NCBI GenBank assembly: GCA_903901225.1
Contig: CAIUQE010000005.1
Location: 1-54,109, forward strand
Source: Candidatus Omnitrophota bacterium
GTDB lineage: Bacteria; Omnitrophota; Gorgyraeia; Zapsychrales; Fredricksoniimonadaceae
Direction of reading: 5' to 3'
DNA length: 54,109 bases
Shown one piece after another: positions 917 through 20,516 of this stretch; position 1 is the first letter of the stretch; the number at the start of each line of letters is the position of its first letter. A model generated the notes under the pieces. It had not been told where the DNA came from. It worked only from the letters and a program-made list of their open reading frames with translations, and did no database searches. The position numbers and the translations under genes were made by a program.

Positions 917-932
917 GGATCTTCTCCTAAGT

Positions 933-1694
933 TTATCCGAATCGACCGGTGATATAATCTTCCGTGCGCTTGTCCCTGGGGCGCGTGAACATGACCTCGG
1001 TGCGGCCGAACTCGACCATCTCCCCCATATAAAAGAAGCCCGTATAATCCGAAACGCGCGCGGCCTGCTGCATATTATGCGTCACAATAACGATCGTGTA
1101 ATCTTTTTTTAACTCAAGTATGAGCGCCTCGACCTTGTGCGTTGAAATAGGGTCGAGCGAGGCGCATGGCTCGTCGAACAGGATCACTTCCGGCTCAATC
1201 GCCAGGCAGCGCGCGATGCACAAGCGTTGCTGCTGACCGCCGGACATCCCCAGCGCGCTGTCATGCAAACGATGCTTGACCTCGTCCCACAGCGCCGCCT
1301 TCTTGAGCGATTCGATGACGCGCTCCTCGATCTTGCCCTTATCCTTCATGCCATTGATCTGAAGCCCGTAGGCGACATTCTCAAAAATGCTCTTGGGAAA
1401 AGGATTAGGCTTCTGGAACACCATCCCCACGCGCCGGCGCAAGTCAACCGCGTCCACATCCGGCGCGATGATATCTTTCCCGTCGAGCAGGATCCGCCCC
1501 GTCAATACCGCGTTGGGGACAAGCTCATGCATGCGATTCAAGAGGCGTATAAAAGTGGATTTCCCGCAGCCTGACGGCCCGATGATCGCGGTCACCGCGT
1601 TGCTGGCAATATCCAGGTGTATCCCTTTGAGCGCCTGCTGACGGCCATAAAAGAAATCCACGTTCTCGGCTTTCATCCTGATCTTATTGTCCAT
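933..1694 (-). CDS. pstB: Phosphate ABC transporter ATP-binding protein PstB
   Basis: Walker [25 protein letters not shown], signature [14 protein letters not shown]-terminal [10 protein letters not shown]. Confidence 0.97.
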
Positions 1695-2553
1695 GAGCGA
1701 TCCCTTTTTTTCTCAAATTATAGCGCATGATCACCGCCGCCAGGTTCAACGTGAAGACGAGAACGATAAGGACCAGCGCCGTGCCGTAAGCAATGGGCCG
1801 GACCAGCACGATGTTATGGTGCTGGGTGGACATGATATACAAATGGTACGGCAGCGCCATGAACTGGCTGAACACGGAATTCGGTATGTCCGGCAGGAAG
1901 AACGCCGCCCCGGTGAACAGGATCGGCGCCGTCTCGCCCGCAGCGCGGGATATCCCCAGGATCGCGCCCGTCAGCATGCCGGGGACCGCGTAGGGCAGGA
2001 CATTACCCCAGATCGACTGCCACTTGGTCGCGCCCAGCGCCAGGGCCCCTTCACGATAGGCGCGCGGCACGGTCTTCAGCGCTTCTTCGCTCGCCGTGAT
2101 CGTGACCGGCAGGGTCATCAGCCCCAGCGTGCATCCCGCGGCGAGAATGGATGTCCCGAAATGGGCCGCCTCGACGAACAACGCCACCCCGAAAAGCCCG
2201 TAGACGATCGACGGCACGCCGGAAAGGTTGCGGATGGACATGCGGATGAAGCGCGTCAGGCCGTTGTCCCGGGCATACTCATTCAGATGAATGGCGCAGC
2301 CCATGCCCAGCGGCACGGCCAGAAGGCCCGCAATGATCGTCACAAAAAGCGTCCCGATAAGCGCCGGGAAAATACCGCCCTTGGTCATGCCGTCCAGCGG
2401 CGGTTGCGTCAGGAACTGCCAGGAAATGATCCCGATCCCCTTGGTGATAATGTCGTAAAAAACAATGACCAGGATCAGCGCCACGAACCCCATGCAGGCC
2501 CGCAGGGCCCAGAACCCCAGCCATTCAATGATGCGCGACGATCCGGCTTTCAT
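1684..2553 (-). CDS. pstA: Phosphate ABC transporter permease PstA
   Basis: [22 protein letters not shown] and an EAA loop. True start is taken as ATG 2553 (MKAGSSR), overlapping the pstC stop; the ORF-track extension to 2871 is spurious. Confidence 0.93.
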
Positions 2554-3431
2554 CAGCGCGCCCTCGTGTGCTTGTGGAAAAATACGTCCGCGGCGAGATT
2601 GACGAAGAACGTGATGATGAACAGCATCAACCCGACCACGAACAGCATGTAATAATGGGTCGTGTGGTAGGCGACCTCGCCGAGTTCGATCGCGATGGTG
2701 GCGGTCATGGTCTTGACCGGCCCCAGGAAACTCCCCGGGAACTCGGCAGCATTTCCCGTCGCCATCAGGACGGTCATGGTCTCGCCGATAGCCCGCCCCA
2801 TGCCCAGCATGCACGCGGCCAGGATACCCGATGCCGCGGCCGGGATCTTGACCTGGATCACGGTCTGCCATTTGTTGGCGCCCAGGGCCATGGACGCTTC
2901 CTCATAGGAACGCGGGACACTGCCCAAAGCATCCTCGGACAAGCTGATGATCGTCGGCAGCGCCATTACGGCCAGGAGGATCGACCCGTTGACGGCATTA
3001 AGGCCATTGTATCTCCCGGTCAATTTACAGATCATGGGGCCCACCAGGACAATGCCCAGGAACCCCAGCACGACCGACGGGATGCCCGCCAGTATCTCGA
3101 CGATGGGCTTGGCGATCTCGCGCACGCGGGGATCGGCCACATCCGAAAGGTACGCGGCCGCGCCGATGCCAACAGGAACCGCCACCGCCAGCGACCCCAG
3201 TGTCACCATGAGCGTGCTCATGAGCATCGGCAGGATGCCGTAGGTCGGGGTGGTATAGGCGTCGGGATTCCAGCTGGGCCACTTGATCATGTCCCCGACG
3301 CTGACATCATGGAAGGCGGGCCAGGCATTCCTGACAAGGATCACAAAGATCCCCACCAGGATCCCGATAACAATGATCCCGTTCAAAAAAAAGAACCCTT
3401 CAATGATCTTTTCCTTGATCCTGCGATTCAT
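2553..3431 (-). CDS. pstC: Phosphate ABC transporter permease PstC
   Basis: EILAGIPSVVLG and GRAIGETM motifs, multiple TM segments, position between pstS and pstA. Confidence 0.95.
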   Translation of the reverse strand: MNRRIKEKIIEGFFFLNGIIVIGILVGIFVILVRNAWPAFHDVSVGDMIKWPSWNPDAYTTPTYGILPMLMSTLMVTLGSLAVAVPVGIGAAAYLSDVADPRVREIAKPIVEILAGIPSVVLGFLGIVLVGPMICKLTGRYNGLNAVNGSILLAVMALPTIISLSEDALGSVPRSYEEASMALGANKWQTVIQVKIPAAASGILAACMLGMGRAIGETMTVLMATGNAAEFPGSFLGPVKTMTATIAIELGEVAYHTTHYYMLFVVGLMLFIITFFVNLAADVFFHKHTRAR

Positions 3432-3518
3432 GAAGCCCCTTGTTTTGAAACTGTATTATTGCTGCCCGATTTTATCAGGATGTTCCGTTGTTTGAAACTA
3501 CATTAAACATAATAAAGC

Positions 3519-3576
3519 GTAGGGGCGGACCTCGTGTCCGCCCGGTTCTCCGGGCCGAGACAAGCTCGGCCCCTAC
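3519..3576. repeat. GTAG-type REP doublet (REPIN-like), copy 1
   Basis: GTAGGGGCGGACCTCGTGTCCGCCC-spacer-GGGCCGAGACAAGCTCGGCCCCTAC: two hairpins with GTAG/CTAC ends, located between pstS and pstC. Near-identical copy at 8737-8794. Confidence 0.85.
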
Positions 3577-3610
3577 GCACTATCTTAACAACCATGCTTA
3601 TCAACAACGC

Positions 3611-4483
3611 TCAAAGCCCGAACCTGGCATTCGCGTCTTTATACTCAGCGGGGATCTCGTAGAATCCTTCTTCTTCGACGATCTTCTGGCCTTCCGCGCT
3701 CAGCTCGAACTGGATGAACGCCTTGACCGTTCCAGCGGGACTGCCGTTGACATACTGGTACAACGGCCGCGCGATCGGGTATTTCCCGGACATTACCGCG
3801 GGCTTGTCGATCGGGCTGACAGCCGGCTGACCGTTGCTCAGGTTAATATCAAGAATGCTCACCCCTGCGGCCTGTTTGGCATAGCCAACACCGATGTAAC
3901 CGATGCCCGAAGGATCCGCTTTGACAGCTTCCGCGATCTGGGAATTGCCGTTCATGGTATTCATTTTGGACGAGTAATTGCCTTTCAGGACCATTTCCTG
4001 GAGAAAGCCATACGTCCCGGAATTAGACTGGCGGCCATACAGGTTGATCGGCATATCGCTCCCGCCAACTTCCGACCAATTCTTGATCTCGCCGCGATAA
4101 ATGGCGCCAACCTGATCCTTGGTCAATACTTTCACGGGATTACCGGTATTCACAATGATGCTCAGCGCGTCGAACGCGATCACGATACGGCTGGGCTTGA
4201 CGCCATTGGTCGTAGCCGCCTCGAGTTCCTTCGCGTTGATCGCGCGGGATGAATCGGCGATCGCGCACTGCTTGTTGATCATCGCCGCGATCCCCGTCCC
4301 CGACCCGCCGCCCGTGACCGAGATCTTCACGCCGGGATTCTGCTGCATGTACACCTCGGCCTCTTTTTGGACGAGATTGATGATCGTATCCGATCCCTTC
4401 ACCTGAACCATCTCGGCGGATGCCGCGCCAGCCATGACGGCCAACCCTGACAACGCTACCATGAACTTCGTAGAGTATTTCAT
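3611..4483 (-). CDS. pstS: Phosphate ABC transporter substrate-binding protein PstS
   Basis: Signal peptide ending ASA-E; KGSDT, GGGSGTG, IADSSR and RQSNSGTY motifs; SD AAGGAGG upstream. Confidence 0.95.
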   Translation of the reverse strand: MKYSTKFMVALSGLAVMAGAASAEMVQVKGSDTIINLVQKEAEVYMQQNPGVKISVTGGGSGTGIAAMINKQCAIADSSRAINAKELEAATTNGVKPSRIVIAFDALSIIVNTGNPVKVLTKDQVGAIYRGEIKNWSEVGGSDMPINLYGRQSNSGTYGFLQEMVLKGNYSSKMNTMNGNSQIAEAVKADPSGIGYIGVGYAKQAAGVSILDINLSNGQPAVSPIDKPAVMSGKYPIARPLYQYVNGSPAGTVKAFIQFELSAEGQKIVEEEGFYEIPAEYKDANARFGL

Positions 4484-4554: not shown

Positions 4555-5880
4555 TTAGAACTTCATGTTCCAGTCGACCTGATAAACACTGGCCGGCTTG
4601 GTCTGGTTCGATCCGGCAAGCTGGACACTGCCGGGCAACTGCCACCCGTAATAATAGTCCAACCCGAGCCAGGTGTTCTTCCCAAGGCCGAAATCCAGCA
4701 TGCCTTCATGGGACCTCATGCCTGTTTTGCCGGCATAACGATCCGAGTCAGGAAGAATATCCAGGACCGCGTCACGACCCAGCATGGCATAATTGTACCT
4801 GAGCTGCCAATCGCCGAACGCCGCGATCTTCTCAGCGCCGACCTTGAACCCGCCCATGTAACCCGTGTTACGGTTCTTCACGGCCACGTTCTGCACATAT
4901 TCACCAAAGATGCTCAAATACGGCAGGTTGATGCCAAGTGCCTTCAACGGTTCCTTGATGCTCAACTCAACCGCCGGACTAAGCTCTGTGTATTTATACA
5001 GCAACAGCCCTGTCGTGGTTCCCGTGGTATTGGAATTCGTTCCCGCGGTCCCATAAAGCTGTTTGTTGTTGGTTCCGGTGTGCATGTAGTAAGAAAGCGC
5101 ACTCTTGAGGCTGACCGTATCACTGATGCCATAAACCAAGCCAGGCTGAGCGACATACATCGTCGGGCTCGCCCATTTCTTGGCCGTGGCGGTTGTTGTT
5201 TCCGCGATGGTCAGGACTCCTGTATTAAGGAACGCATTCACATTCGGGCTCAGCTGATGCTCAAGCTTTAAGGCTCCGCCCGCCGGATTGATATCCGTAT
5301 CCCAGATCAGGTCGCCCGGTTCCCAGAGTGGATTTTTGAATTTACCCGCCGTCAATGTCGCCCACGAAACCGGCGCATATTGGGCAAACGCGTAATCCAG
5401 CGCCAATGAATACTTGGAAAACCCGTTCGTCAGCGTCTGGTTGGTCGAACGCGACTGGTCCGCGGACTCTGTGGCCACATCATCCTTACCGGTGGCCAGG
5501 CCGATACCAACGAGCAGCTTGTCATTGGGCTTGGACTCCACGCCAAGGCGCATGCGAATGCGCGTGCGGTCACCATCAGGCGTGACGGTCGTTCCCGCAA
5601 GCTGTTTGGCATGGTCATGCTGATACCTGAAACGGAAATCACCCTTCAGCTTCGTTGTCTGCACCCAGGCCGGGATCGCATCATTCGAACCTGTGGCATT
5701 CTGCTGAGCCACCTGCTGCTTCGTCTCATCGAGCAGGATCTGCCCCTCATTCGCTGACAGCACGCCTTTTTCGACGAGTTTCTGAACAAGGAGATCCACT
5801 TCTCCCGCGTGAGCCATCGGCGCGCACGTCACCAGAGCCGCCGCCCACACCACCATTGCGAACCACAATTCTTTTCTCAT
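4555..5880 (-). CDS. Putative outer-membrane porin heading the pst operon
   Basis: Signal peptide ending AHA-G, N-terminal LVQKLVEKGVLS helix, KLKGDFRFRYQ and amphipathic beta strands, C-terminal Phe (DWNMKF). Resembles the 'putative porin' (Porin_5-like) type. Confidence 0.8.
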   Translation of the reverse strand: MRKELWFAMVVWAAALVTCAPMAHAGEVDLLVQKLVEKGVLSANEGQILLDETKQQVAQQNATGSNDAIPAWVQTTKLKGDFRFRYQHDHAKQLAGTTVTPDGDRTRIRMRLGVESKPNDKLLVGIGLATGKDDVATESADQSRSTNQTLTNGFSKYSLALDYAFAQYAPVSWATLTAGKFKNPLWEPGDLIWDTDINPAGGALKLEHQLSPNVNAFLNTGVLTIAETTTATAKKWASPTMYVAQPGLVYGISDTVSLKSALSYYMHTGTNNKQLYGTAGTNSNTTGTTTGLLLYKYTELSPAVELSIKEPLKALGINLPYLSIFGEYVQNVAVKNRNTGYMGGFKVGAEKIAAFGDWQLRYNYAMLGRDAVLDILPDSDRYAGKTGMRSHEGMLDFGLGKNTWLGLDYYYGWQLPGSVQLAGSNQTKPASVYQVDWNMKF

Positions 5881-5933: not shown

Positions 5934-5989
5934 AGAATACAATGGATGTGTTGCGAAAAAGTGGCGTTGGTGTGAACTTTGTGTGAACT
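5934..5989 (-). promoter_or_regulatory. Putative Pho-box promoter of the porin-pstSCAB-phoU operon
   Basis: Minus strand reads GTTCACACAAA GTTCACACCAA (11-bp period), then two degenerate units, then -10 TATTCT at 5939-5934. Confidence 0.7.
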
Positions 5990-6194: not shown

Positions 6195-7973
6195 TTACGC
6201 CGCGGGAAGGGTAAAACTGAAGGTCGTGCCCTGGCCCACCACGGAAGATACCCAGACTTCACCGCCATGGGCGTGGACGATGTGCTTGACGATCGAGAGG
6301 CCCAGGCCTGTACCGCCCTGGTCACGCGAACGCCCCTTGTCCACGCGATAAAACCGTTCAAAAATACGGCTGAGGTCTTCCGGAGGGATGCCAATGCCGG
6401 TATCCGTGATATCGAAGCGGATGAACCTGCCCTGCGCCACGGCCGCGACATTGACACGGCCGCCATCAGGGGTGTACTTCACGGCATTGTCCAGCAGGTT
6501 GAGGAACACCTGCGCGAGCCGGGCCTCATCGGCCATCACGCGGGACACCCCTTCTTTCAGGGCTACATTGACCGCCAACTTCTTTTCCGTGACCGCCTTC
6601 TCCAATATGGCAAGACTGCGTTGAAGGACAATGCAGGCATCGAGCCGCGCGGGCACAACCTTCATCCGGCCGGACTCGATCCTGGCCAGATCCAGCAGGT
6701 CATTGATAAGATTGACGAGCCGGTCGCTGTTCTCGTGGATTATCCCGAGGAATTCTTTCAGCGCCGCGGGATCTTCCATGGCCCCGCCCAGGAGGGTTTC
6801 CGCGTAGCCCTTGATGCTGGCCACGGGGGTCCGTAATTCGTGCGACACATTCGCCACAAAATCCTGGCGCACTTTTTCCAGCCGCCGCAACTCGGAAACA
6901 TCGTGGAACACCAGCACCGCGCCTTCCACTTTCTGCGACGGGCGGATAACGACACCGTTGACCTTGAGGTCTTTCTCTTCGGGCAGCAGGAAGGATATTT
7001 CCTGGCTGATGACGCGATCCTTGCCCTGCAACAGGCGCTCAAGGATGCCGGTGAGCGCCGTATTGCGGACCACATCAATGGCATGCCGCCCTTCGGGCGA
7101 CGCGTCAATCAAAAACATTTTACGCAAGGCCGGGTTCATCAGCATGACAAGCCCTTTGTCATTGACCAGCATGATGCCTTCAAACATGTGCGTGATGACG
7201 GCGTCGAGCCTGGCTTTTTCCTGCTCGATGTCCGTGATCTTGCTCCTGATCTCGTCGGACATGTGCGTGATCGCGCGCGCCAGGTCGCCCACCTCATCAT
7301 CAGAGCGCACCGAAGGCTTGCGGGAAAAATCTCCGGAGGCAATGGCCCTGGACACGGATGCCATTTCTTCCAGAGGCTTCGAAACGACCCGGGCGATCAA
7401 ATATGTGAAGCCAAGGCTCAGCAGGAATGCCAGCAGGAGCGCGAAACCTACGATCTTCTCCGGCCCCGCCTCCAGAAGTTCGACGTCGGAAAGCGGCATC
7501 GCCAGGCGAACGACCCCCTTGACGCCCCAGCTGTCGAAGGGGACCGCCATATAGAGAAGGTCCTTGCGGATGGTGGAACTGTAACGGCGACTGACGCCAA
7601 AACCCACCTTCACGGCATCGCGGATCTCGGGACGCCCCGCGTGATTCTCGACCGCGTGGATATTGGCATCGCTGACCTCGGAATCCCCAAGGACCACACC
7701 CCTGGTATCAACAAGGGTCACCCGCATGCCAACGGCCATGCTCATCCGGTGGGCCAGCGCTCCAGGCGCGGACATGCCGGCATGCGCCTGGATGTCGGTC
7801 TCCACAAGTTCCCGGGCAAGGGCAACTTCACGCCTGAGGTCGTTCTGAAGGTCCTGGTCAAGGAAAGTTTTTAGATGGCCGGTAAGGTAAAAATAACCCA
7901 GCGCAAGGCTGACGATGACCGCCGAACAGAGAAATGCCGTCAATTTCCAGTGAAGTTTAATCCTCATCATCAT
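6195..7973 (-). CDS. phoR: Phosphate regulon sensor histidine kinase PhoR (TM-periplasmic-HAMP-PAS-HisKA-HATPase)
   Basis: ENHAGRPE sensor motif, FVANVSHELRTP H-box, NAVKYT, IFERFYRVDK, GTGLGL. Overlaps the phoB stop. Exact start among three tandem ATGs is uncertain. Confidence 0.92.
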   Translation of the reverse strand: MMMRIKLHWKLTAFLCSAVIVSLALGYFYLTGHLKTFLDQDLQNDLRREVALARELVETDIQAHAGMSAPGALAHRMSMAVGMRVTLVDTRGVVLGDSEVSDANIHAVENHAGRPEIRDAVKVGFGVSRRYSSTIRKDLLYMAVPFDSWGVKGVVRLAMPLSDVELLEAGPEKIVGFALLLAFLLSLGFTYLIARVVSKPLEEMASVSRAIASGDFSRKPSVRSDDEVGDLARAITHMSDEIRSKITDIEQEKARLDAVITHMFEGIMLVNDKGLVMLMNPALRKMFLIDASPEGRHAIDVVRNTALTGILERLLQGKDRVISQEISFLLPEEKDLKVNGVVIRPSQKVEGAVLVFHDVSELRRLEKVRQDFVANVSHELRTPVASIKGYAETLLGGAMEDPAALKEFLGIIHENSDRLVNLINDLLDLARIESGRMKVVPARLDACIVLQRSLAILEKAVTEKKLAVNVALKEGVSRVMADEARLAQVFLNLLDNAVKYTPDGGRVNVAAVAQGRFIRFDITDTGIGIPPEDLSRIFERFYRVDKGRSRDQGGTGLGLSIVKHIVHAHGGEVWVSSVVGQGTTFSFTLPAA

Positions 7974-8655
7974 CCTGCCTGAAACGGTAGCCCGCGCCGA
8001 TCACGGTCTCAATGAGGCCCCCGGCGACGGACAATTTGGACCGCAGACGACGCACGTGCGTGTCAACGGTGCGGGTGTAGATCTCGGCGTCAATGCCCCA
8101 GACGTCGGTCAAAAGCTTTTCACGGTCCTGCACGCGGCCCCGGCGCTCCATCAGCAGGGTCAGGAGCTTGAACTCCATGGCCGTCAACTTCACCTCGCGC
8201 CCCTTGACCGTCACGCGGTGGCGCTCCTTGTCCAACAGCAGGTCTTTGGCCGCGAGGACATCCCCAGCCTCAGCGCCGGCGCTATGACGCCGCAGCACGG
8301 CTTTCACGCGCAGCACAAGCTCGCGCGGGCTGAACGGCTTGACGATATAATCATCCACGCCAAGTTCAAGGCCGACGATGCGGTCAACCTCTTCGCCTTT
8401 GGCCGTGAGCATCATCACCGGGATGCGCTTGAGATCGGGATCGCGCTTGATGGCGCGGCATACCTCAAGCCCGTCGATGCCCGGCAGCATCACATCAAGC
8501 ATGACCAGATCAACGGACGCAGCCGCCAGCGCGGTGAGCGCGGCCTCTCCGGTTACCGCGATGGCACAGGCATAACCCGCCTTGTCCATGTTGTACTGGA
8601 TCAGGCGCGCGATGTCCTTGTCATCCTCGACGATCAATATTTTTTTCTTGGCCAT
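7957..8655 (-). CDS. phoB: OmpR/PhoB-family response regulator
   Basis: REC domain (VEDD, LDVMLP, LTAKGEE, KPFSPREL) plus winged helix (RTVDTHVRRLRSKL, GAGYRF); adjacent to phoR and the pst operon. Confidence 0.9.
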   Translation of the reverse strand: MAKKKILIVEDDKDIARLIQYNMDKAGYACAIAVTGEAALTALAAASVDLVMLDVMLPGIDGLEVCRAIKRDPDLKRIPVMMLTAKGEEVDRIVGLELGVDDYIVKPFSPRELVLRVKAVLRRHSAGAEAGDVLAAKDLLLDKERHRVTVKGREVKLTAMEFKLLTLLMERRGRVQDREKLLTDVWGIDAEIYTRTVDTHVRRLRSKLSVAGGLIETVIGAGYRFRQDDDED

Positions 8656-8736
8656 AACTTATTATATTACCATACGCATATTTAATTTAAATGCCATGTT
8701 TTTATGGCAAGAAATCACATGTCAAATTTATTGTGT

Positions 8737-8794
8737 GTAGGGGCGGACCTTGTGTCCGCCCGACGTCACGGGCCGAGACAAGCTCGGCCCCTAC
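8737..8794. repeat. GTAG-type REP doublet (REPIN-like), copy 2
   Basis: GTAGGGGCGGACCTTGTGTCCGCCC-GACGTCAC-GGGCCGAGACAAGCTCGGCCCCTAC; arms differ from 3519-3576 at one base, spacer differs. Confidence 0.85.
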
Positions 8795-8872
8795 GCTCAT
8801 TTTCATCAACATTCATATTACCAGAAACCGCATTTTCACCCATCGTTTTTTCAACACCATGCCCCCGCATGT

Positions 8873-11800
8873 TTAGCGCACAAGGAACGCGCTCGGGTCT
8901 TCCAGTGGCCCGAATGCCGTGATCCTGAAATCAAATCCCCGAAAAAGCTGAAGGAATTGCAACGAACGCGCGACAGGCACGGTGGCCAAACCTGCGGACG
9001 ATGGCGCCGGAGTTGCCCTGAATTCAATATTATTCCGGGTCCCGCTGAGGTCCAATCCGCCGTTCTCAGGTGCCATCAGAACATTATCCCGCGCGGGGCT
9101 TTCCATGGAAGCATCCGCGCCATTTTCTTCCAGCAGCTTCACAGCCTCCTCCATACCCTCTTTCCCCTTGATATGCACCACCCTGGCCGCGCCGTAATGA
9201 GGCAGGACCGGATCATAGGTAAGGTCATCCCCCGCGTCCTTGCGGGCATTAACGAACATCTTGTAAAAAGTCTTAAAACGGTCACGGGCGTCATCGGGGT
9301 CACTGATCCCGTAATACTGCCCGATATCGGCGAAGCTGATCCGCTTGTTAAGATACCCTGTTAAGATCTCATCCTTGGCTTCCAGGAAATTATTAAGGAT
9401 ATCCGTAGTTATGTGCAAATATTTCAGCTGTGCCCACAATTCCGGGTCCTTCTGCAACCCATCCAATACGCTCTCCAGAACACTGACCGCTTTGGGACTA
9501 AAGACCATGACGCCGCTTAACGCGGGGAACTGCCTTAACGCAGGACGGTTCAGGTCGTACTGGTCTTCCAGGTACTTCAACACCTTGTTGCGATACGTCT
9601 TGCCGACGCCGTCTTTTTGAAGCGCCGGGATATCAAGTTTTTCAAGGATCTCGTTGAGCTCGACCCCCTCGGGAGAGAACTTCATCACGAGCAAACCCAA
9701 TGTCTGGAGTTCTTTCTGGTTGACCCAATCCCCCAGAAGATTCACATCATCGCCGGAAAATCTCGGCATGGGGCCGAAATACGCGTCACGGCTGTAAATG
9801 ATAATGTGCCCGCCCCGCGCGCGGCCATCTTCCGGCGCGCGCATGGACCCGGCGGCACGATACCCGTTCACAACTGTCCAATCAAGGATCCTGTCATTCT
9901 GATGGGCATTATTTCCGTGAAAAACAAACATCACGCGCACATCTTCAGGCGCGCGCCCCTTCAGTTCAGGATACTGTTCCAGGAACGCCCCGTCATTCAA
10001 TCTCTCCCGGACCCGCTGCATCGCTTCGAAATAAACATTCCCGCTGCCCTGACGCCGCGGCGCCACCACTTCAACCGGCACATCTTCCCTGAAGATATTT
10101 CCCCGGCGTCCGGGCACATACCGCTTTCCCAGATCATCGGCATACCCTCTATCTTCAGGGACGATCACGACCATATCCACCGAAGGCTTATCAGCAGTGA
10201 TCTCCCGCGTGAGCGCCTGGACGCCTTCCTGCAACGCCGAACGGACAGTTACCGCTTTGCCATCGCCCTGCGCGTCCATTGCGGCCGGTCCCAGCCGTGC
10301 CCCTAACCCGGCATCCAGCTTTTCGGTCACAGCCTTCATGGTCGAGCTCCACGACATCTGCATGATATCAATATGCGGCACCCAGTAGATCATCAGGCTG
10401 ATCATGACAGCGGCGACCCCCGCCAGCGTCAATCCGCTACTGGCCGAAATAATGCCCAGAAAACTCATGACAAGCGCCGCGCTCAACCCCAGGGGGCCTG
10501 AAATGGTGCGCACCCGGCTCCAAAAACTGCGCATCTTGAACTTGTGGCTGGGGGCTGACCTGATGGGCGACAGAAGACTTAAGGCTTTCTGTGTCACTTC
10601 CGACAATATCTTTTTACTTTCCTGCACAACATTCAACTGGGCATCCGACGGATACAATCCGGGCATCAAGGTATTGCCCTGGGCTAAAAGATCCGGCAAT
10701 TCTCCGAAAAGCCTTTTTTCAGAAAGACGCCACTGATATGTATAAAGAAGGACCCAGCGAAAGAACGGATAAACATTGAACCGTTCGGCCCAATGTGAGC
10801 CCGGGAGTTTATAGCTCATCACCTTGTCGATGATCCCCCGATGTTCCAGGACCCGTAAATACACGTGAACATAACTGATCATTTGCGCGAGGACGCGCGC
10901 GTCGCGCGCCAGCAGCTGCCGCTGATGCTCATCCATATCCGGGCTCTTTTTCACGGCATCATCAAGGACATTCAACGTATCAATGGCCAGCAAATTAAAA
11001 TAGCTGAAGGCCGTCTGGTAATGCTCGTTAAGGACAGTGCCTGATGAATTCACTTTTTCCATAAGATCAGGCGTATACGGCGTCATGCGCAGGACCTGGA
11101 ACGCGTTGTTGAGGATATTATTGAACCCGTCAACAATATCTTGCGACGGGACCGCCGCGCCAGCGCCCCGCCATCCATAAGCGATCTCCTGCCACCGGCG
11201 CAGAAAGTCCCCGATCCCGTCATATATGCCATCCCCGGGGATCGTCACAACGGCAGTCGTGCGTGCCGTTGCCGGCGGGACCGTGCCACGCCAGGCCGTC
11301 CATACGTCCTTCCAGCCGCGGGCATGCCCGTTCCCGTTCATGACCTCGACCGAAAATTCACGCCGGAGCGCCAGGATCAGGTCTTCGACGGAGGCCTTCT
11401 TCAGAAAAGACTTGTTGTTCCATCTCTTGAAAAAGAACACCGGCAAAAATATGACGCTGCCCCACAGGAGCAATTTGTTCATGAGGGGCATGGACGACAC
11501 ACTCTGGTCGTTATGGGCAATATCATCGGCAAACGCGTCCCTCCAATAAATGATGTCCTTCGCCAGCGCCCGTACTTCCCCGGCGCCGCGCTCTTGCACG
11601 CTGTCAAGATAACGCCCCACATCGCGGGGATCCGCGGCGGAGTTGATCCTCTGTTCCAGCGCGTCGATGAGCGCCAATTCGCCCTGCTTGTACGTATGCT
11701 GCAATCCCAGAAAATCGTTAAGAATGCCCTGGCGATACGGCTCGGTCTGCTTCAGGAGGGCCAAAGCCAGCCGCGTCGCCTCAACATTGATCTGGGCCTG

Positions 11801-14800: not shown

Positions 14801-17488
14801 CGTAACAAAGAATTTCACCGCGCCAAGGGCCGGCGCCACAACGGGTGACTCTTGCGCCACGCCGACAACAGCGCTCGTTTGCGCCACCCCGATCACCGTG
14901 CCCAGATCAACCTCCGATGCTGATGACGGGAACGCGACGCGCACATCATGGGCGGATCCGGCCTCGATGTTCAGCGATGTGGTGACAAGGAACGTGACAA
15001 CCGCCTCGGTCCGCTTCAAGGGATCCACGCGACAGGCCACGCTGACGATCCCGGTCACAGGCTTGCCATCGATCGTGACGCGAACGCGGCTAAAGTCTGT
15101 TTGCGTCACGGGCATCCTCACGCTGAAACCTGCCCTCTGCCCGGAAAGATAATTGACCAGAGGCATGCCTTTCGCGACCGTCTGCCCGTTAGCAACAATA
15201 AAATTCTTAACCGACAAGTTACAGGGCGCGTAAATGGCACCCGCCTGCTGCGCCTGCAGGAGCGGGGCCAATTGCCGGGAAATATTCGCGACGTCCGTAT
15301 TAACAGCGTCGATCTCGGCCATGGTCGCGGCTTGCTGGCCCTGCAAAGACTTCAACATGGCCAGCCGCTGCCGGGCCATGGCGAGCTGCTGCCTTAGCCC
15401 GCCCATTTGAGGATCGATCGCGGGATCCACCAGCCTGAACATGAACGCACCTTCCCGATATTCTTTCTTATTCGGGTTCAAACCCGTGACAATACCGCCC
15501 GTCGGGGACTTGAGCGGTATCTCGTTGAGCTCGAACGTTGTCCGGATCGACAGTTCATACCCCTTCTTATCCGTTGAAGGTGGCGTGGGTCTCGCCGGTG
15601 CTGGCGCAAGCGCCGGCAAGGACTTGGACGGCTCAGCCTTCACGGGCGCAGGCGCGGGGACTTTGGACGCTGCCTTTTGGCGCACAGCTTCTTGCACCTG
15701 CTTCTGAAATAATGGCGGGGCCTCTTGCTGTTTCATTGGAGCCGTGGCTTTGGTTTCAAGCACATTCCCGGCAGGTGATGCCTCCGTTATTGCCGCTGGA
15801 GGCGCGACCTTCTGTTGTGGCGCCATCCGTGCTTCGAGCGCGCGACGAGTTTCCGATCCCAGCTTCCCGTCTTCCCTGAGCCCCAGGGCTCTTTGCGCCA
15901 CCACGATCACCGCTTCCTGTTGCCAGCCCATGCTCGAAGGTGAAAAAACAGCGTCCCAATGCTGGTGGAGATTTTTCCAGTCAAAATCATACGCCCTCCC
16001 GCTCGACGGGTTTACCTTACCCTGGATATCCCTCACCGCATCCTGGCTCAGGAACCCTTTCATCAAAGAAAAATACTTCTGATCCTGCGCCGGGATCATA
16101 TCGCCCCGACTCACAATATTTCCGGATACCGCGACCGGCCTCTCCGGCCTGGTTAGTCCGGTTGGCCCGGCAACGCTGGTGACCGACGCCGGCTGGGCGT
16201 AAGCGGTATTCTGAACACCGGTAAAGGACGCGGGAGGCGCCAATAATCCAGCGGCAAGAACAAGACTGTACAGGGCTTTGCGGGACATCCCCCGCGATGC
16301 CAGGGAAATCGTAAAACTGTAAAATTTGCTACCCAGGCGCCCCATCAGCTCGCGCAAGTCCGTTAAAGACGGTATCGACCGGTACTCAACGCTCTGGGCC
16401 GCGTCCTTGAATGAAAACCCGCCTGAAAAATAACGGCGCGGGACCATCTGCCGTTCCGTCGGGTCATAATCCTCGCGGATAACATCGTAGACACCTTTTT
16501 TCAACGCCAGCATGTACTGCGCGTAGATCTTCCGGCTGACCTCGCGGTCTTCGTCCTGGATACCGGAAAGCTTTCTCTGGTCCGTATATATCCGGTTAAT
16601 GATATTGTCCTGAAGCTTGCGTTTGAACCAGATGGCCAGGACCAGGGAATTGAACATCTGCCGCAGGCTGGCAAAATACTGGCCCTCATTCACTTCCCGT
16701 TCAAGCTCCGGGATAATGATCTCACGCGCGATGGACAAATAAAGTTTATTGGCTGGCCCGACAGACTCCGGCGCGGCGGGGCCGTCCGTCATCCCCTTTT
16801 TCATGGTCATGTAATCCGCGTCGAGCATCACCTTGAGCCGGCTTTCCGATATGAAGGCCGCGCCTTTTTGTTCATAGACAACAGCTTTCTGGGGAACCAC
16901 CCAAACCTTGCTGATCGTGTCCAACGGCACATCGACACTGCCGTATTCTTTTCTGATCTTCGCGTAGACCCGCTCCCAGAACGTCTTGCCCGGCTCCCGG
17001 TCAGGGAACGTCATGGACGCGGCCAGCTGTTTGAGCAGATAATCTTCCCGGAGCATGTCCCCGCCCGCGGCGGTCCCGCTCAGGGACTTATTAACGATAC
17101 GGTCAGGTTCGGTGGGCGAAAGGTTGACCCAGAGGTCTTCTTCAGGGATGGTCAGGAATGTCAGGAAATAGCGGGTCAACCGGCTGGATCCTTCCTGGTC
17201 CACGCGCCCGTGATCACCGGCATCGACGAGAAAGTTGATCTTCAAAGGATCCGCGGGATCAAGGGCTATGCCTTTGAGGACCGGCAGGGAACCCACGGGC
17301 GAAGCGGTCAACACAACACCAGGGGGAGGTTCCACGATCACGCTTTGGGCCCGCGCCTCCCGCACCCGCAACAGATCAGGCCCGATCAGCTCACTGCCAA
17401 AGACAAGCACCAGCAACCAGCAGGCGCAGCGAAACCATGCCTGCCGCTGTAAACCGGATAAACTTCCTTTGAAGCTGGAACGCAACAT
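8873..17488 (-). CDS. Giant (2871 aa) multidomain envelope protein, Omnitrophota-giant-protein-like
   Basis: Uninterrupted 8.6-kb ORF with SD-like AAAGGAAAC upstream. By eye: signal peptide, conserved-looking N-terminal domain, internal signal-like segment, PG-binding motif, two HlyD-like units, coiled coils, HEAT-like region, 3 TM helices, nucleotidyltransferase-like domain, GGLDL C-terminal motif. Confidence 0.85.
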   Translation of the reverse strand: MLRSSFKGSLSGLQRQAWFRCACWLLVLVFGSELIGPDLLRVREARAQSVIVEPPPGVVLTASPVGSLPVLKGIALDPADPLKINFLVDAGDHGRVDQEGSSRLTRYFLTFLTIPEEDLWVNLSPTEPDRIVNKSLSGTAAGGDMLREDYLLKQLAASMTFPDREPGKTFWERVYAKIRKEYGSVDVPLDTISKVWVVPQKAVVYEQKGAAFISESRLKVMLDADYMTMKKGMTDGPAAPESVGPANKLYLSIAREIIIPELEREVNEGQYFASLRQMFNSLVLAIWFKRKLQDNIINRIYTDQRKLSGIQDEDREVSRKIYAQYMLALKKGVYDVIREDYDPTERQMVPRRYFSGGFSFKDAAQSVEYRSIPSLTDLRELMGRLGSKFYSFTISLASRGMSRKALYSLVLAAGLLAPPASFTGVQNTAYAQPASVTSVAGPTGLTRPERPVAVSGNIVSRGDMIPAQDQKYFSLMKGFLSQDAVRDIQGKVNPSSGRAYDFDWKNLHQHWDAVFSPSSMGWQQEAVIVVAQRALGLREDGKLGSETRRALEARMAPQQKVAPPAAITEASPAGNVLETKATAPMKQQEAPPLFQKQVQEAVRQKAASKVPAPAPVKAEPSKSLPALAPAPARPTPPSTDKKGYELSIRTTFELNEIPLKSPTGGIVTGLNPNKKEYREGAFMFRLVDPAIDPQMGGLRQQLAMARQRLAMLKSLQGQQAATMAEIDAVNTDVANISRQLAPLLQAQQAGAIYAPCNLSVKNFIVANGQTVAKGMPLVNYLSGQRAGFSVRMPVTQTDFSRVRVTIDGKPVTGIVSVACRVDPLKRTEAVVTFLVTTSLNIEAGSAHDVRVAFPSSASEVDLGTVIGVAQTSAVVGVAQESPVVAPALGAVKFFVTEGQLVKAGQLLASQPGAQGEYGATRAQYDRVSAQLQRFAPRDGVHYISADQMVALEKEKASLGARLGGLGAVISRSNITAPCAGIVTGISTQRSFGPGDTILSLKGPVRVGDMTNMNAAILLPRALDIRMGDPVLLRAFGKNVTGTVTNINKNPISRDRNLGAVQAIEVTANDPHHFLGTNMPVTVIVLTDAEKQFVLKKFGPALKSPVPRTRAVKMSAAGSEPPRRRVVPPLLPAQPVTQSQNVAASPVNAVPLTPPVALPQAPSASSVAFFKGMPEEFTPSTALKVDIEKARRDIDQWTKLVADLESAGTGLAAREAAGFALTSAKNTLDQQIQDARQKLADAQRNKNYLMDSMGWPLNEKKVFQYPWEGNFPRVYIDKRGAFNPRSWELQDMSIAEARAVAEMDALSRQIRVQTAAYYSARQAWENSLRQSDLFRPDQLVHERAKVTELALKLDDLKAKYFKASVQVKDWVVKNNMGGKREPVVEEPVPAPQKQMPVINDTVTAVREAVGSPQAVVDHRPRKAQRPVEPAIAPLQGHMARVVTPPSDGFFTPGSVTYENDIKSGGAALAFIAGSDGLSDETLRILTQEPNEIVRQQTLDFLLQEGRHDRKFTGIVEQAVLNSAYPDVQQRLLLYMAGRDGGDVRFFVRVIDEAIRQKKFTLVAWGFQGLSDIFSQDPAGIKRLSELNYSSAAGGSATRVSPEAARRVMVTFLSWAGEGSIAGIRLLRSDYWTTDQLGEIHSSLKTARDARSVSLRQLVYDEIVRREALRGIEDINRGSYEKVSPLFTKKDIHAYFMLGEGLKNINARFLASAPVWRDVEKHLPAWLSDRAREGAGAVLAAGVSRTPVLYDIPATSVDDAPLLAYFNGLGLDARKNYISQTKDIPELGRIFALPTDLRGMALDRLMTTPQGRILALQVYAASDDPELCALVEARGEWSDLLTKDVRDVPDPVATGILRQALLKMSRHLGEDWPLNIRLKTYTFAELRTADDPRQGNMRQAQINVEATRLALALLKQTEPYRQGILNDFLGLQHTYKQGELALIDALEQRINSAADPRDVGRYLDSVQERGAGEVRALAKDIIYWRDAFADDIAHNDQSVSSMPLMNKLLLWGSVIFLPVFFFKRWNNKSFLKKASVEDLILALRREFSVEVMNGNGHARGWKDVWTAWRGTVPPATARTTAVVTIPGDGIYDGIGDFLRRWQEIAYGWRGAGAAVPSQDIVDGFNNILNNAFQVLRMTPYTPDLMEKVNSSGTVLNEHYQTAFSYFNLLAIDTLNVLDDAVKKSPDMDEHQRQLLARDARVLAQMISYVHVYLRVLEHRGIIDKVMSYKLPGSHWAERFNVYPFFRWVLLYTYQWRLSEKRLFGELPDLLAQGNTLMPGLYPSDAQLNVVQESKKILSEVTQKALSLLSPIRSAPSHKFKMRSFWSRVRTISGPLGLSAALVMSFLGIISASSGLTLAGVAAVMISLMIYWVPHIDIMQMSWSSTMKAVTEKLDAGLGARLGPAAMDAQGDGKAVTVRSALQEGVQALTREITADKPSVDMVVIVPEDRGYADDLGKRYVPGRRGNIFREDVPVEVVAPRRQGSGNVYFEAMQRVRERLNDGAFLEQYPELKGRAPEDVRVMFVFHGNNAHQNDRILDWTVVNGYRAAGSMRAPEDGRARGGHIIIYSRDAYFGPMPRFSGDDVNLLGDWVNQKELQTLGLLVMKFSPEGVELNEILEKLDIPALQKDGVGKTYRNKVLKYLEDQYDLNRPALRQFPALSGVMVFSPKAVSVLESVLDGLQKDPELWAQLKYLHITTDILNNFLEAKDEILTGYLNKRISFADIGQYYGISDPDDARDRFKTFYKMFVNARKDAGDDLTYDPVLPHYGAARVVHIKGKEGMEEAVKLLEENGADASMESPARDNVLMAPENGGLDLSGTRNNIEFRATPAPSSAGLATVPVARSLQFLQLFRGFDFRITAFGPLEDPSAFLVR

Positions 17489-17543
17489 GTTTCCTTTCCG
17501 CAGGAACAGAACGCAGTCGAATCAAACATTTTCTGTTAAGCGA

Positions 17544-17599
17544 AATATAACATGGGCGTGGGGACGAAAAGTTACAGGGGTGTGAACTCTGTGTGAACT
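17544..17599 (-). promoter_or_regulatory. Putative Pho-box promoter of the giant gene
   Basis: Minus strand reads GTTCACACAGA GTTCACACCCC, then -10 TATATT at 17549-17544. Same repeat and same 30-nt repeat-to--10 spacing as 5934-5989. Confidence 0.7.
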
Positions 17600-17651
17600 A
17601 TTGTCAAGAATGTCAAATAATGACAGTTAATTCAAGTAATCGAGCTTTTGA

Positions 17652-17773
17652 ACATGTTTAACGCCCCATTGTTTTCGCCGCGCCAAGCGCCAGGTACCCT
17701 TCCGCCTGGAGCGAAGTGAAGCCGGAAGGGTGGCGCGTTAAGGCAGGCGAAAAGTTTCAGGCGCTAAACATGT
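17652..17773 (+). mobile_element. 122-bp MITE-like element, copy 1
   Basis: Terminal inverted repeats ACATGTTTAACGCC / GGCGCTAAACATGT and an internal CCCTTCCG...CCGGAAGGG hairpin. A homologous inverted copy lies at 27575-27696. Confidence 0.75.
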
Positions 17774-17776
17774 ATT

Positions 17777-20125
17777 TCATTTCTTCTCAATAACCACGCG
17801 CCAGTGGTCGCCCTGGCGCTCCTGCAGGATGATCTTGTGCCCTTCATCCCGAACCGAGCCAGGAACATTCTCTATAGGCGCGCCATCATCAAGCCATATT
17901 TCCAGAAGATCGCCGGCTTTCAACCTGGCCAGTTCGACCTTGGTCTTGACGAAATTGAACGGGCAAAGGACGCCGCGCAGGTCTTTGGTGGCTGCCGGCG
18001 CGAGGGCCGCGACCTGAACCGGTACCGGCGCTTCAACCGCGGCAACGGGCGGCTTCCTGAAATTGAAGCCGTTATCCATGTTCTCATACAGCACATTGAT
18101 CGCGCGGGCCAGGGCCTGGATATTTTCTTCCTGCGGCACGAGAGCATCGAACTCCTTGCGCTCGGCCAGGGCCACGAGGCCCTCGAACGCGGGATCCACA
18201 TGCCCCGCGGCAATGAAATGCTGGCGGAAGGCATCGTACAATTCCCTGTCGGTCTTCGGTTCAACACCGCGCGTGATCAACAGCGCCCGGCTCGCGAAAA
18301 AGACCAACTGGCCCAACAGCGGCCCTTTCTGGTCCGCCGCGGCGGTGGAAAGTTTTTCCCGCGTCCGACGGATATTGTTCAGGTCCAGTTCAATGAGGTC
18401 AAAAAGCCCGGTTGAACATTCGCCGGCACCCCGTTCGGCCAGCGAGAAGACCTTCGCGGCGCTCCAGTCAAAATAATAATTCTTGTCGTCGTCAAACGCG
18501 GGGATGTCCTTGTAACGCGCGATAATGGCAACCAGGTCGTCTTTGCCTTCACCGGCGATATACTCTTTGAACGTCGCGAAGCGGTCCGCCTTGCCCAGGA
18601 ACGCGGCGAGGAGGTTTTCCACCACAAGCGTGATCGCCCTGGCGGGGATATCTCCCACCAATGCCGCGAGCTTCGTCGTGCCATCGTGGATCACTGCCCC
18701 CGCGTAAACGCTATAAGCGGGATACATGTGCCCGTCCTTGCGCAGGGCCTTACCGGCAAAGCCCAGGTCCGCGGCCGGATGATGCCCGCAGGAGTTCGGG
18801 CATCCGGAAATATTCAACCGGATCTCCCCGACCTTGTCCAGGTCCAGGCCGCTTGAACCCAGCGACTGGATCAACGCCCGCGCCGCCTGGCGCGAAAGGC
18901 AAATGCCCAGCTGGCAGGTCGAGGCACCCGCGCACGAAAGGACCCGCCCCAGCAAAGCAGGCTTGGGCACAAGGGGCAGCACCCTCACCAGAAAAGCATG
19001 GACTTCCTCCAGCTTTCCCGCCGGGATATTCCGCAACAGGAAATTCTGGCCCCGCGTCACGCGCACGACATCATCGCCAAACCCACCCAGGAACCGCGCC
19101 AGCGCGCCGGCCCCATCGCAGGAAATGAACCCGAGTTCCACCGGCACAAGGACCGAAAAAAGCCCGGCCTGTTTCTGTTCCCTGACATAACGCGCGCGCC
19201 ACAGGACAAACTCCGGCTCACCCGGGCCAGGGTGGACCGCCGCCGTCACGGCGCGCCCGGCCTGGGGCTCGTCGAGCGTGAGCGGCGCGTGCCCCTCCTG
19301 CGTGACCTTATTGAACTCCTCATAAAAACGCCGCTTGAATTCTTCCGCGCCCAGGCCCTGCCACAGGAACCTCAGCCGCGCCGCGTGCTTGTTCTTGCGG
19401 TTGCCGTATTTCCAGAACAGGTTCTTGACGGCCTTGGCGATGGGATAAACCTGCGTGTCGTCGACGAAATCGAACAGGAGGTTCCCGACGGCTGACCGCA
19501 CCCCCAGCCCTCCGGCGACATGAACGCGAAATCCTTTTTTACCATCCACGATCCTCGCGATGAACCCCAGGTCGGCCAATGTCGCCTGCCCCTTGTCGTG
19601 CTCCGAGCCGGAAAAAGCGATCTTGTATTTGCGGGGAAGGTTCCAGGAATCGTTCTCCGCGATAAGGCGCGTGGTCAGCGCCGCCGCGTAAGGCGTCACA
19701 TCAAAAACTTCCAGAGGATCGATCCCGGCATCGTCCTGCGCCGCGATATTGCGCACCGTGTTCCCGCCGCCGCCGCGCGTGGAAAGCCCGGCCTCTTTCA
19801 ACTGGCGGATCACCGCGACAAGGTCGTCCAGCTTCACATAATGGATCTGCAATTCCTGCCGCGAGGTCAAATGCAGGTCACCGACGCCGTAGCGCGCGGC
19901 GATCGCGGCGACCTTCTCCAGCTGGCCCGGGGTCACGATACCGGCGACACAGCGGATGCGCACCATGTACGTGTCCGCCTCTCGCTGTTCATAAACACCG
20001 AACGGGACGCGATGGACCTTAAGCTCGATGGGGGCTATCGCGCCGGCGCGGAATTTTGCTATCAACGCTTCGAGCTGGCCGATCTCCTCATCAAGCTGCG
20101 GCGGGATCTTATAACCTGTCGTCAT
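17777..20125 (-). CDS. sir: Siroheme/4Fe-4S sulfite reductase with C-terminal TusA/SirA-like sulfur-transfer domain
   Basis: FGVYEQR, HLTSRQELQIH, NLPRKYKIAFSG, SCAGASTC...ISGCPNSCG cluster ligands, C-terminal DLRGVLCPFNFVK. Start taken at ATG 20125 after GGAGGT. Confidence 0.88.
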   Translation of the reverse strand: MTTGYKIPPQLDEEIGQLEALIAKFRAGAIAPIELKVHRVPFGVYEQREADTYMVRIRCVAGIVTPGQLEKVAAIAARYGVGDLHLTSRQELQIHYVKLDDLVAVIRQLKEAGLSTRGGGGNTVRNIAAQDDAGIDPLEVFDVTPYAAALTTRLIAENDSWNLPRKYKIAFSGSEHDKGQATLADLGFIARIVDGKKGFRVHVAGGLGVRSAVGNLLFDFVDDTQVYPIAKAVKNLFWKYGNRKNKHAARLRFLWQGLGAEEFKRRFYEEFNKVTQEGHAPLTLDEPQAGRAVTAAVHPGPGEPEFVLWRARYVREQKQAGLFSVLVPVELGFISCDGAGALARFLGGFGDDVVRVTRGQNFLLRNIPAGKLEEVHAFLVRVLPLVPKPALLGRVLSCAGASTCQLGICLSRQAARALIQSLGSSGLDLDKVGEIRLNISGCPNSCGHHPAADLGFAGKALRKDGHMYPAYSVYAGAVIHDGTTKLAALVGDIPARAITLVVENLLAAFLGKADRFATFKEYIAGEGKDDLVAIIARYKDIPAFDDDKNYYFDWSAAKVFSLAERGAGECSTGLFDLIELDLNNIRRTREKLSTAAADQKGPLLGQLVFFASRALLITRGVEPKTDRELYDAFRQHFIAAGHVDPAFEGLVALAERKEFDALVPQEENIQALARAINVLYENMDNGFNFRKPPVAAVEAPVPVQVAALAPAATKDLRGVLCPFNFVKTKVELARLKAGDLLEIWLDDGAPIENVPGSVRDEGHKIILQERQGDHWRVVIEKK

Positions 20126-20516
20126 GCACAACCTCCAGTGTTTCTTCCGTGACCTGCCCGTTCTTTATCCAGAATGCCCTGACGTCTTCGTGGCCGTCCG
20201 CGAGCGATACGATCACATAAAGCTTCCCGGCGTCGTACGCAAGGCGGATGTCCTCAGCCGAAGGCCGCGCCGGGCTGGCCGGATGGCTGTGGTAGACCGC
20301 CTCAAGCGACGTGCCTTTGGCCCGGGCCTCCCTGGTCGCCGCGAACTGCTCCCGGGGATCAAAGGAAAAATGTTCGGGGCTTTTGTCGCAATTCGTCAAT
20401 TCATGGATCCCCGCCAGGACCCCGTCCTTCACAGCGAGGTAGCCGCACGCTTCCAGCGGCGCTTCACGACGGGCATGGGCCAGCAGTCGCTCTTGGATAT
20501 CCCCGGTGATCCTCAT
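20109..20516 (-). CDS. JAB/MPN (M67) metalloprotease, sulfur-carrier processing (HcyD/Mec-like)
   Basis: EACGYL and YHSHPASPARPSAED JAMM motif. Start taken as MRITGD at 20516. Confidence 0.9.
   Translation of the reverse strand: MRITGDIQERLLAHARREAPLEACGYLAVKDGVLAGIHELTNCDKSPEHFSFDPREQFAATREARAKGTSLEAVYHSHPASPARPSAEDIRLAYDAGKLYVIVSLADGHEDVRAFWIKNGQVTEETLEVVHDDRL

Follow-up and report, generated by a model that had tools for sequence, protein, structure and literature searches.

A predicted Pho-box promoter, conserved in relatives, precedes the gene for a 2,871-residue protein in a Candidatus Omnitrophota bacterium

Positions 17544–17598 on the minus strand of a Candidatus Omnitrophota contig most likely form a PhoB-dependent promoter of the Pho-box type, placed ahead of a gene for a giant protein of 2,871 residues; judged from DNA sequence, this gene is very probably induced at low phosphate. 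The window, the whole stretch of DNA analysed here, is 54,109 nucleotides long, and its own genome assembly (G000) comprises 2,378,232 bases in 49 contigs, with 54.6% G+C and 94.8% completeness. A sequence-only reading of the window had assigned the giant gene to the Pho regulon, and this assignment is supported by the rarity of the site, its conservation before nine of nine orthologues and in one further genome (G002), the synteny of the giant gene with pho/pst genes, and a regulon census. The regulatory device is classical; the phylum is new, and the member gene is both new and unusual. No link between Omnitrophota and a Pho regulon was found in the literature searched, and the words ‘promoter’, ‘PhoB’ and ‘Pho regulon’ do not occur in the main text of those papers on giant genes in Omnitrophota that were searched for them. 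Public names of homologues also put the organism in Candidatus Omnitrophota.

The order of features on the minus strand is Pho-box promoter, giant gene, phoB-phoR, a second Pho-box promoter, and porin-pstSCAB-phoU (Table 1). The 217-nt gap between the giant gene and phoB (8656–8872) contains a REP-like double hairpin without a T-run and weak promoter-like hexamers. Positions 8600–17900 of the window were found in four runs, all of DNA and from one lake-water study, which may be the source. The gene upstream of the giant gene encodes nitrite/sulfite reductase domains fused with a C-terminal TusA sulfurtransferase domain. The REP-like element, about 60 nt long and built as a double GC hairpin, has 36 blastn-short matches in G000 (e.g. 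C16:11768, C23:27618); a second copy in the window lies between pstS and pstC (3522–3578), and the element is found in about a dozen further places. In at least three paralogues of the giant-protein N-terminal domain, the second hairpin of this element (23 nt, 100% identical) falls in frame within the variable loop and encodes RADTRSAPT, so that a palindromic repeat has become part of coding sequence.

Table 1. Features of the window and related sites elsewhere in the analysed genomes
Feature	Position	Strand	Remark
NIR_SIR/TusA gene	20131..17777	(-)	upstream of giant gene
288-nt gap with first site	17776..17489	(-)	
Giant-gene promoter, 11-nt units GTTCACACAGA GTTCACACCCC TGTAACTTTTC GTCCCCACGCC CATGTTATATT	17598..17544	(-)	
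Pho-box unit 1 GTTCACACAGA	17588..17598	(-)	strong half-site; core (nearly) invariant across 18 aligned promoters
Pho-box unit 2 GTTCACACCCC	17577..17587	(-)	strong half-site, unit 1 + 11 nt
Pho-box unit 3 TGTAACTTTTC	17566..17576	(-)	weaker half-site, spans expected -35 hexamer position
Pho-box unit 4 GTCCCCACGCC	17555..17565	(-)	weak half-site; core end to -10 is 9 nt
-10 hexamer TATATT, giant gene	17544..17549	(-)	TAnnnT at matching unit-5 position in 18/18 aligned promoters
Giant gene, 2,871 aa	8873..17488	(-)	no Pfam family at E <= 0.01
N-terminal family domain, residues 40-420	16229..17371	(-)	follows signal/anchor helix
C-terminal domain, residues 2380-2871	8876..10351	(-)	predicted sugar-nucleotide pyrophosphorylase-like fold
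REP-like double hairpin	8740..8800	(-)	giant gene/phoB gap
phoB-like response regulator, OmpR family	7957..8655	(-)	best NCBIfam TIGR02154, 255.5 bits, cut-off 296.2
phoR/PnpS-type histidine kinase, overlaps phoB	6195..7973	(-)	PnpS NF046044, 442.2 bits > 400
Porin promoter, 11-nt units GTTCACACAAA GTTCACACCAA CGCCACTTTTT CGCAACACATC CATTGTATTCT	5988..5934	(-)	
Four Pho-box units, porin-pst promoter	5945..5988	(-)	phased-site reading
-10 hexamer TATTCT, porin-pst promoter	5934..5939	(-)	
Porin_5-family porin	4555..5880	(-)	PF16930, 157.3 bits; first gene after second Pho box
pstS 3611-4483, pstC 2553-3431, pstA 1684-2571, pstB 933-1694, phoU 251-916	251..4483	(-)	all above NCBIfam cut-offs
Small gene	G000 C19:2416-2821 (L024); L013:13926, L014:8720, L018:9666		
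C49-type paralogue promoter	G000 C49:17661 (L025:2662); G006:C55:201		
Second REP hairpin inside N-domain paralogues	G000 C31:28222-28244, C26:16749-16771, C19:32194-32216		

The double site AGTTCACAC-NN-AGTTCACAC occurs twice in the window, both times on the minus strand (17580–17599 and 5970–5989), and in both promoters 30 nt separate the end of the second 9-mer from a -10-like hexamer. Re-reading both minus-strand stretches confirmed this arrangement of two 9-mers 11 bp apart at a fixed distance from the -10, as originally noticed. Where a -35 hexamer would be expected, both G000 promoters have ACTTTT, which agrees with TTGACA at none of the six positions. The giant-gene promoter matches the core at 22 of 28 positions and the porin promoter at 20 of 28, units 3 and 4 being weak in G000; TGTAAC, found in unit 3 of the giant-gene promoter, is seen again in the giant-gene promoters of G003 and G002. 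Transcription would start near 17537, about 7 nt downstream of the -10, giving a predicted leader of ~50 nt. Beyond the binding units, the two promoters have little in common, and the layout is the conserved part. The giant-gene promoter had been described as a phased copy of the pst promoter: units and layout do match and the pst operon does lie downstream, but the flanks share little, so ‘copy’ is not to be taken as duplication, and the first gene behind the second promoter encodes a Porin_5-family porin ahead of pstSCAB-phoU, so that this promoter does not stand directly before pstS.

The phased pair of repeats is rare. Allowing up to three mismatches, the 20-nt double site is present at two places in the window against 0.00 expected, and none of 100 dinucleotide shuffles reaches two. 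Across the whole of G000, two 8-mers in 11-nt phase occur without mismatch at these two places only; one or two mismatches add no site, three give eight and four give 73. The single 8-mer is found four times in the window against 1.17 expected (5 of 100 shuffles reach four) and 43 times in the genome; the bare 8-mer is weak evidence, and the rarity lies in the phased pair. A position weight matrix (PWM) trained on ten promoters from relatives only, with no G000 site, singled out four places in G000: the porin promoter (42.2), a small gene at C19:2416 (34.4), the giant gene (33.8), and a paralogue at C49:17661 (30.9). The sequence-only reading had held that a motif common across the genome at unrelated genes would count against it; the motif is not common, since these four outliers (30.9–42.2) are followed by a next score of 19.6, and the maxima in three shuffled genomes were 19.1, 14.8 and 14.9.

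Conservation of the promoter was scored by a phased-site rule that adds up matches to a 7-nt core in four units at 11-nt spacing and to three positions of unit 5 (T6, A7 and T11), over the 260 nt preceding each start codon. As a null, 3,000 random 260-nt windows of G000 gave a mean of 15.7 (sd 1.3) and a maximum of 22; at most one in 3,000 reached 21 or 22, and none reached 23. In all nine giant-gene upstream regions, four TTnACA units in 11-nt phase precede a -10 at a fixed distance, with scores of 21–28 (G000 28; G007 and G003 27; G001 26; G023 24; G005 23; G020 and G015 22; G019 21). The layout is also present in six of six porin upstream regions (23–26) and four of four small-gene upstream regions (24–29). 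Before phoB, a box is found for the first G004 copy (24) and in G015 (22), and no box lies within 260 nt upstream in G000 (18), in G023 (16) or before the second G004 copy (17). Unit 1 lies 90–110 nt from the giant-gene start codon in the seven closer genomes, and 71 nt (G020) and 245 nt (G015) from the estimated start in the other two. In an unguided scan of 12–20-kb loci, which made no use of gene starts, the giant-gene site ranked first in four loci and second in one; the remaining top sites preceded the small gene, the porin gene and the first copy of phoB in G004.

Eighteen promoters align without gaps, with the consensus GTTnACAnGAA GTTCACATnnn CGTCACnnnTT nTTCACATnnn nAnnnTATACT. Positions T3, A5, C6, A7, T14, A16 and C17 are invariant, and the spacing to the -10 is equal in 18 of 18. 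An alignment of seven giant-gene upstream regions has its identity mainly in the units and the -10, between divergent flanks. In G001, a second full Pho-box promoter (L015:18319–18373) lies ~340 nt upstream of the giant-gene one, with no recognisable gene between them.

Full-length or near full-length relatives of the whole giant protein are confined to the same genome family. Searching the loci around these relatives by tblastn with the proteins of the window showed that the giant gene has pho/pst genes close by in all nine genomes with enough contig (G000, G001, G002, G003, G004, G005, G007, G015 and G023); this count leaves out G019 (contigs of 3.7 and 9.3 kb, too short), G012 and G017. In G020, no pho gene lies in the 15 kb examined. 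The order of the block varies among genomes and the neighbourhood is kept: the giant gene is followed by a small gene, porin and pstSCAB in G007 (with phoR on the other side), by a small gene, porin and pstSCAB-phoU in G005 and, with a paralogue at the end, in G002, by two phoBR pairs, porin and pstSCAB-phoU in G004, by phoB, porin and pst in G015 (again after phoR), and by phoB and phoR in G023. It comes after phoU in G001 and after porin-pstSCAB-phoU in G003.

The census of the predicted regulon used a sequence-only profile (R1) of 18 promoters, a training set partly picked by eye first and later re-derived by a fixed rule, run over 26 whole genomes. It gave 34 matches at E <= 0.1, of which 17 are training sites (the 18th, from G023, belongs to a genome outside the searched set) and 17 are new; these counts are not independent because the genomes are kin. 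The earlier expectation that matches should be phosphate genes was borne out for 11 of the 17 new ones, which lie before porin-pst (five: G001, G003, G009, G013, G032), phoB (four: G003, G009, G015, G032) or extra pstS-like genes (two, both in G004). The remainder comprise the 5' end of the giant gene in G002, the tenth genome with a site before this gene, the small gene in G013, C49-type paralogues in G000 and G006, and two matches with no gene assigned (G003:C196:8243, at a contig end; G027:C145:1365, E 0.09). Thirteen of the 26 genomes have no R1 match, and because these include G008, G010, G011, G012 and G014 of the same family, the profile can be taken as fitted to the genus and its close relatives. 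In G000, ppk1 and pit have no site (best scores 19 and 15, inside the null), and PhoA and PhoX were searched for and not found, so that, of the four strong G000 sites, a single one precedes a textbook phosphate operon.

Two groups of genes outside the classical set deserve description. The small gene encodes ~110 residues with a YKWIESEK motif and a weak DUF4032 signal (19 bits, below 23.8), and no other gene has better Pho-box promoters; in G007, G005 and G002 its place is between the giant and porin genes, and in G000 it is located elsewhere and split over two reading frames. The C49 pair encodes 704-residue and 1,263-residue paralogues of the N-terminal domain of the giant protein behind a Pho-box-like promoter (PWM 30.9) that is conserved in G006, and the predicted regulon therefore extends to a second member of this domain family.

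The candidate regulator is encoded just downstream of the giant gene. G000, at 94.8% completeness, has two Trans_reg_C regulators only; the other, on contig C20, is CusR/CopR-like, of the copper/heavy-metal type, and comes with its own heavy-metal-type kinase. The best family of the phoB-like regulator is PhoB, at a score below the equivalog cut-off (Table 1), and its kinase partner passes the threshold for PnpS and falls below that for PhoR (TIGR02966, 308.7 against 334.2). The setting beside pst and phoU favours a PhoBR identity. Among solved structures, the DNA-binding domain of the regulator is similar to PhoB (1gxp, E 8.5e-17) and slightly more so to ArlR (E 1.1e-18), so it does not by itself decide the binder. 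In one case, G015, the PhoB recognition helix differs and the half-site is CTTAAC-like, a hint of possible co-variation between helix and half-site.

The binder, the direction of control and the signal are predicted, and can be assembled into the following mechanism. When phosphate is scarce, the PhoR/PnpS-type kinase would phosphorylate the PhoB-like regulator. PhoB~P would bind the two perfect 11-nt units head-to-tail, then spread cooperatively to the two weaker, promoter-proximal units at the -35 position, and finally recruit sigma-70 RNA polymerase to a promoter with a good -10 (TATATT) and no -35. As the promoter layout is the same, the giant gene would be co-induced with the porin-pstSCAB-phoU operon. 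In G000, where phoB has no Pho box of its own, read-through over the REP-like hairpin may also feed phoBR.

Several other readings of the same repeats can be weighed against this one. It is very improbable that another regulator, whether the CusR/CopR-like protein on C20 or an unrecognised factor, binds the repeats in response to a signal other than phosphate. The sub-cut-off score of the PhoB-like regulator leaves room for such a factor, as do the two strong sites heading genes without a known phosphate link (the C19 small gene and the C49 paralogues), but the layout precedes porin-pstSCAB-phoU in six of six loci and in five further genomes found blind, stands also before phoB and extra pstS genes, and the sole other OmpR-type regulator of G000 accompanies a heavy-metal-type kinase. 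A different possibility, which we consider equally improbable, is that the site serves mainly phoBR autoregulation; the giant gene would then simply lead a giant-phoB-phoR transcript as its first cistron, with no phosphate role itself. The giant gene is boxed in G001, G002, G003, G005 and G007 even though phoB is not next to it, and in G004 and G015 the phoB directly after the giant gene has its own box. What speaks for the idea comes from G000 and G023, where phoB follows the giant gene without a box of its own (18 and 16), and from the 217-nt gap, whose hairpin without a T-run is no clear terminator and whose REP-like element is also found inside the pst operon. Read-through may well occur in G000, yet it cannot explain why the box is conserved, because the box is kept where phoB does not follow.

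The direction of control can be questioned on the grounds that the units overlap the -35 region, so that a bound protein could block polymerase, and that PhoP-type regulators do act as repressors at some genes. Repression of the giant gene by PhoB at low phosphate is nonetheless very improbable: the porin-pst promoter, without whose induction Pst could not serve its purpose, has its units in exactly the same phase and orientation and at the same distance from the -10, and the giant-gene promoter lacks a -35 hexamer, in keeping with an activator-dependent promoter. Finally, the resemblance might be due to chance or be the functionless relic of a local duplication. The single 8-mer, which is not rare (5 of 100 shuffles; 43 genome copies), is compatible with this, whereas the phased pair, seen in none of 100 shuffles and at two places in the genome, is not easily so; moreover, units and -10 are conserved and flanks diverged in seven aligned orthologous regions, and nine of nine orthologue upstream regions, at 21–28, score above almost every random window, making a chance or relic origin extremely improbable.

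In E. coli, Pho boxes replace the -35 element and stand about 10 bp before the -10 hexamer. The arrangement in the window is similar, with units in place of the -35 and the core of unit 4 ending 9 nt before TATATT; two boxes (four units) lie ahead of the pst operon, and the window encodes the regulator and the kinase as well as pstSCAB and phoU. It differs in several respects: the half-site core here is (G/T)TT(C/A)ACA, the strong units are the two promoter-distal ones, the PnpS-like kinase combines HAMP and PAS with an N-terminal part that is weakly sCache-like, the operon opens with a Porin_5 gene, and the regulon includes a 2,871-residue protein. Passages of PMC3978041 describe E. coli PhoB sites as two 11-bp direct repeats; the repeats here share the 11-bp period of an E. 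coli Pho box such as that of pstS, where a regulator of the OmpR/PhoB family is bound head-to-tail, and such binding is predicted for the giant-gene promoter. Streptomyces PhoP, as covered in parts of PMC2275107, recognises 11-nt units with the consensus G(G/T)TCAYYYR(G/C)G, which begins like the GTTCAC found here. In Streptomyces coelicolor, at least two units are needed, operators contain two to six, and well-conserved core units nucleate binding that spreads cooperatively to poor ones (same passages of PMC2275107), a scheme that the two perfect and two degenerate units of the window fit. Unlike the Streptomyces sites, those in the window belong to a different phylum, conserve unit positions 7–11 differently, and have predicted binding.

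The giant protein itself yields few matches to known families. A hydropathy scan placed an anchor or signal helix at residues 17–40 and further helices at 2002–2020 and 2329–2376. At E <= 0.01 the whole protein matches 0 Pfam families; seven segments searched at E <= 1 returned only sub-threshold PG_binding_1 (19.3 against 23) and Biotin_lipoyl_2 (21.2 against 29.8). An RND/HlyD-type periplasmic adaptor was considered for the middle of the protein, where TIGR01730 scores 29.3 bits against a cut-off of 94.9; together with the two sub-threshold Pfam signals, this offers hints only.

The N-terminal domain (~320 residues) has 48 tblastn matches in G000, about 41 of them near full length, at 35–47% identity. 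Copies on C31, C49, C19, C34 and other contigs each open a long ORF, and mean column identity over 29 copies is 47%. Among the 48 matches, a PWM score above 19 is found upstream of the giant gene and one C49 copy only. The domain has no Pfam match, its relatives in the Atlas are Omnitrophota hypothetical clusters only, Foldseek returned no PDB entry at E <= 0.001 (best 0.035), and the best of 48,161 chains compared with VIA-align reached a Z of 3.1; the model has a pLDDT of 70.5, so a new fold is not proven.

The C-terminal domain, which matches no Pfam family even at E <= 1, gave a better model (pLDDT 76.3, pTM 0.74). This model aligns with the GDP-fucose pyrophosphorylase part of FKP (9iis) at Z 17.9, with an rmsd of 3.5 Å over 261 residues and a Foldseek E of 1.2e-7, and with other sugar-nucleotide pyrophosphorylases at Z of about 12, which supports a predicted nucleotidyltransferase fold that is FKP-like. 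Across 17 homologues, 24 columns are invariant, including G102, S103, N105, S187 and D189 (domain numbering). These C-terminal 492 residues are present in a single copy in G000, and 18 proteins in this length range share them among 5.8 billion clusters. The likeness to FKP, a bifunctional fucokinase/GDP-fucose pyrophosphorylase (PDB 9iis, 9iit), is confined to the pyrophosphorylase part: identity is 12%, there is no kinase part, and the domain comes after three membrane helices, in one chain with ~2,000 other residues. Given three helices, we infer that the domain would be cytoplasmic if the N-terminus is exported.

These features permit a speculative and, in our judgement, unlikely proposal, namely that the giant protein is a phosphate-starvation-induced, envelope-spanning machine, in which the FKP-like domain, on the cytoplasmic side, would synthesise or degrade a sugar nucleotide, and a periplasmic part of ~1,960 residues, whose weak signals point to peptidoglycan binding and an adaptor-like role, would carry the product to the outside or make contact with a host or prey cell. 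In B. subtilis, PhoP controls the tua/tag cell-wall operons, envelope-polymer genes that use sugar nucleotides. This switch offers an analogy only, in that envelope-type parts and a sugar-nucleotide pyrophosphorylase-like domain are joined in the giant protein; the two systems are unrelated in sequence, the giant protein consists of one fused chain, and a polymer is hypothetical. If the proposal were true, small and possibly host-dependent Omnitrophota would meet low phosphate by rebuilding the envelope with a phosphate-free polymer or by more attachment to a phosphate source, and the Pho regulon would extend, through the C49 pair, into the 48-copy N-domain family, whose members would then be condition-specific surface modules.

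The predicted Pho regulon is compact, consisting of porin-pstSCAB-phoU, phoBR, extra pstS, the small YKWIESEK protein, the giant gene and one paralogue pair, and its half-site consensus can be applied to other Omnitrophota genomes and to metatranscriptomes. To our knowledge, very long Omnitrophota proteins have almost no functional annotation, and the phylum is hardly cultured. A conserved link to the Pho regulon would provide a testable condition, low phosphate, under which the giant protein should appear.
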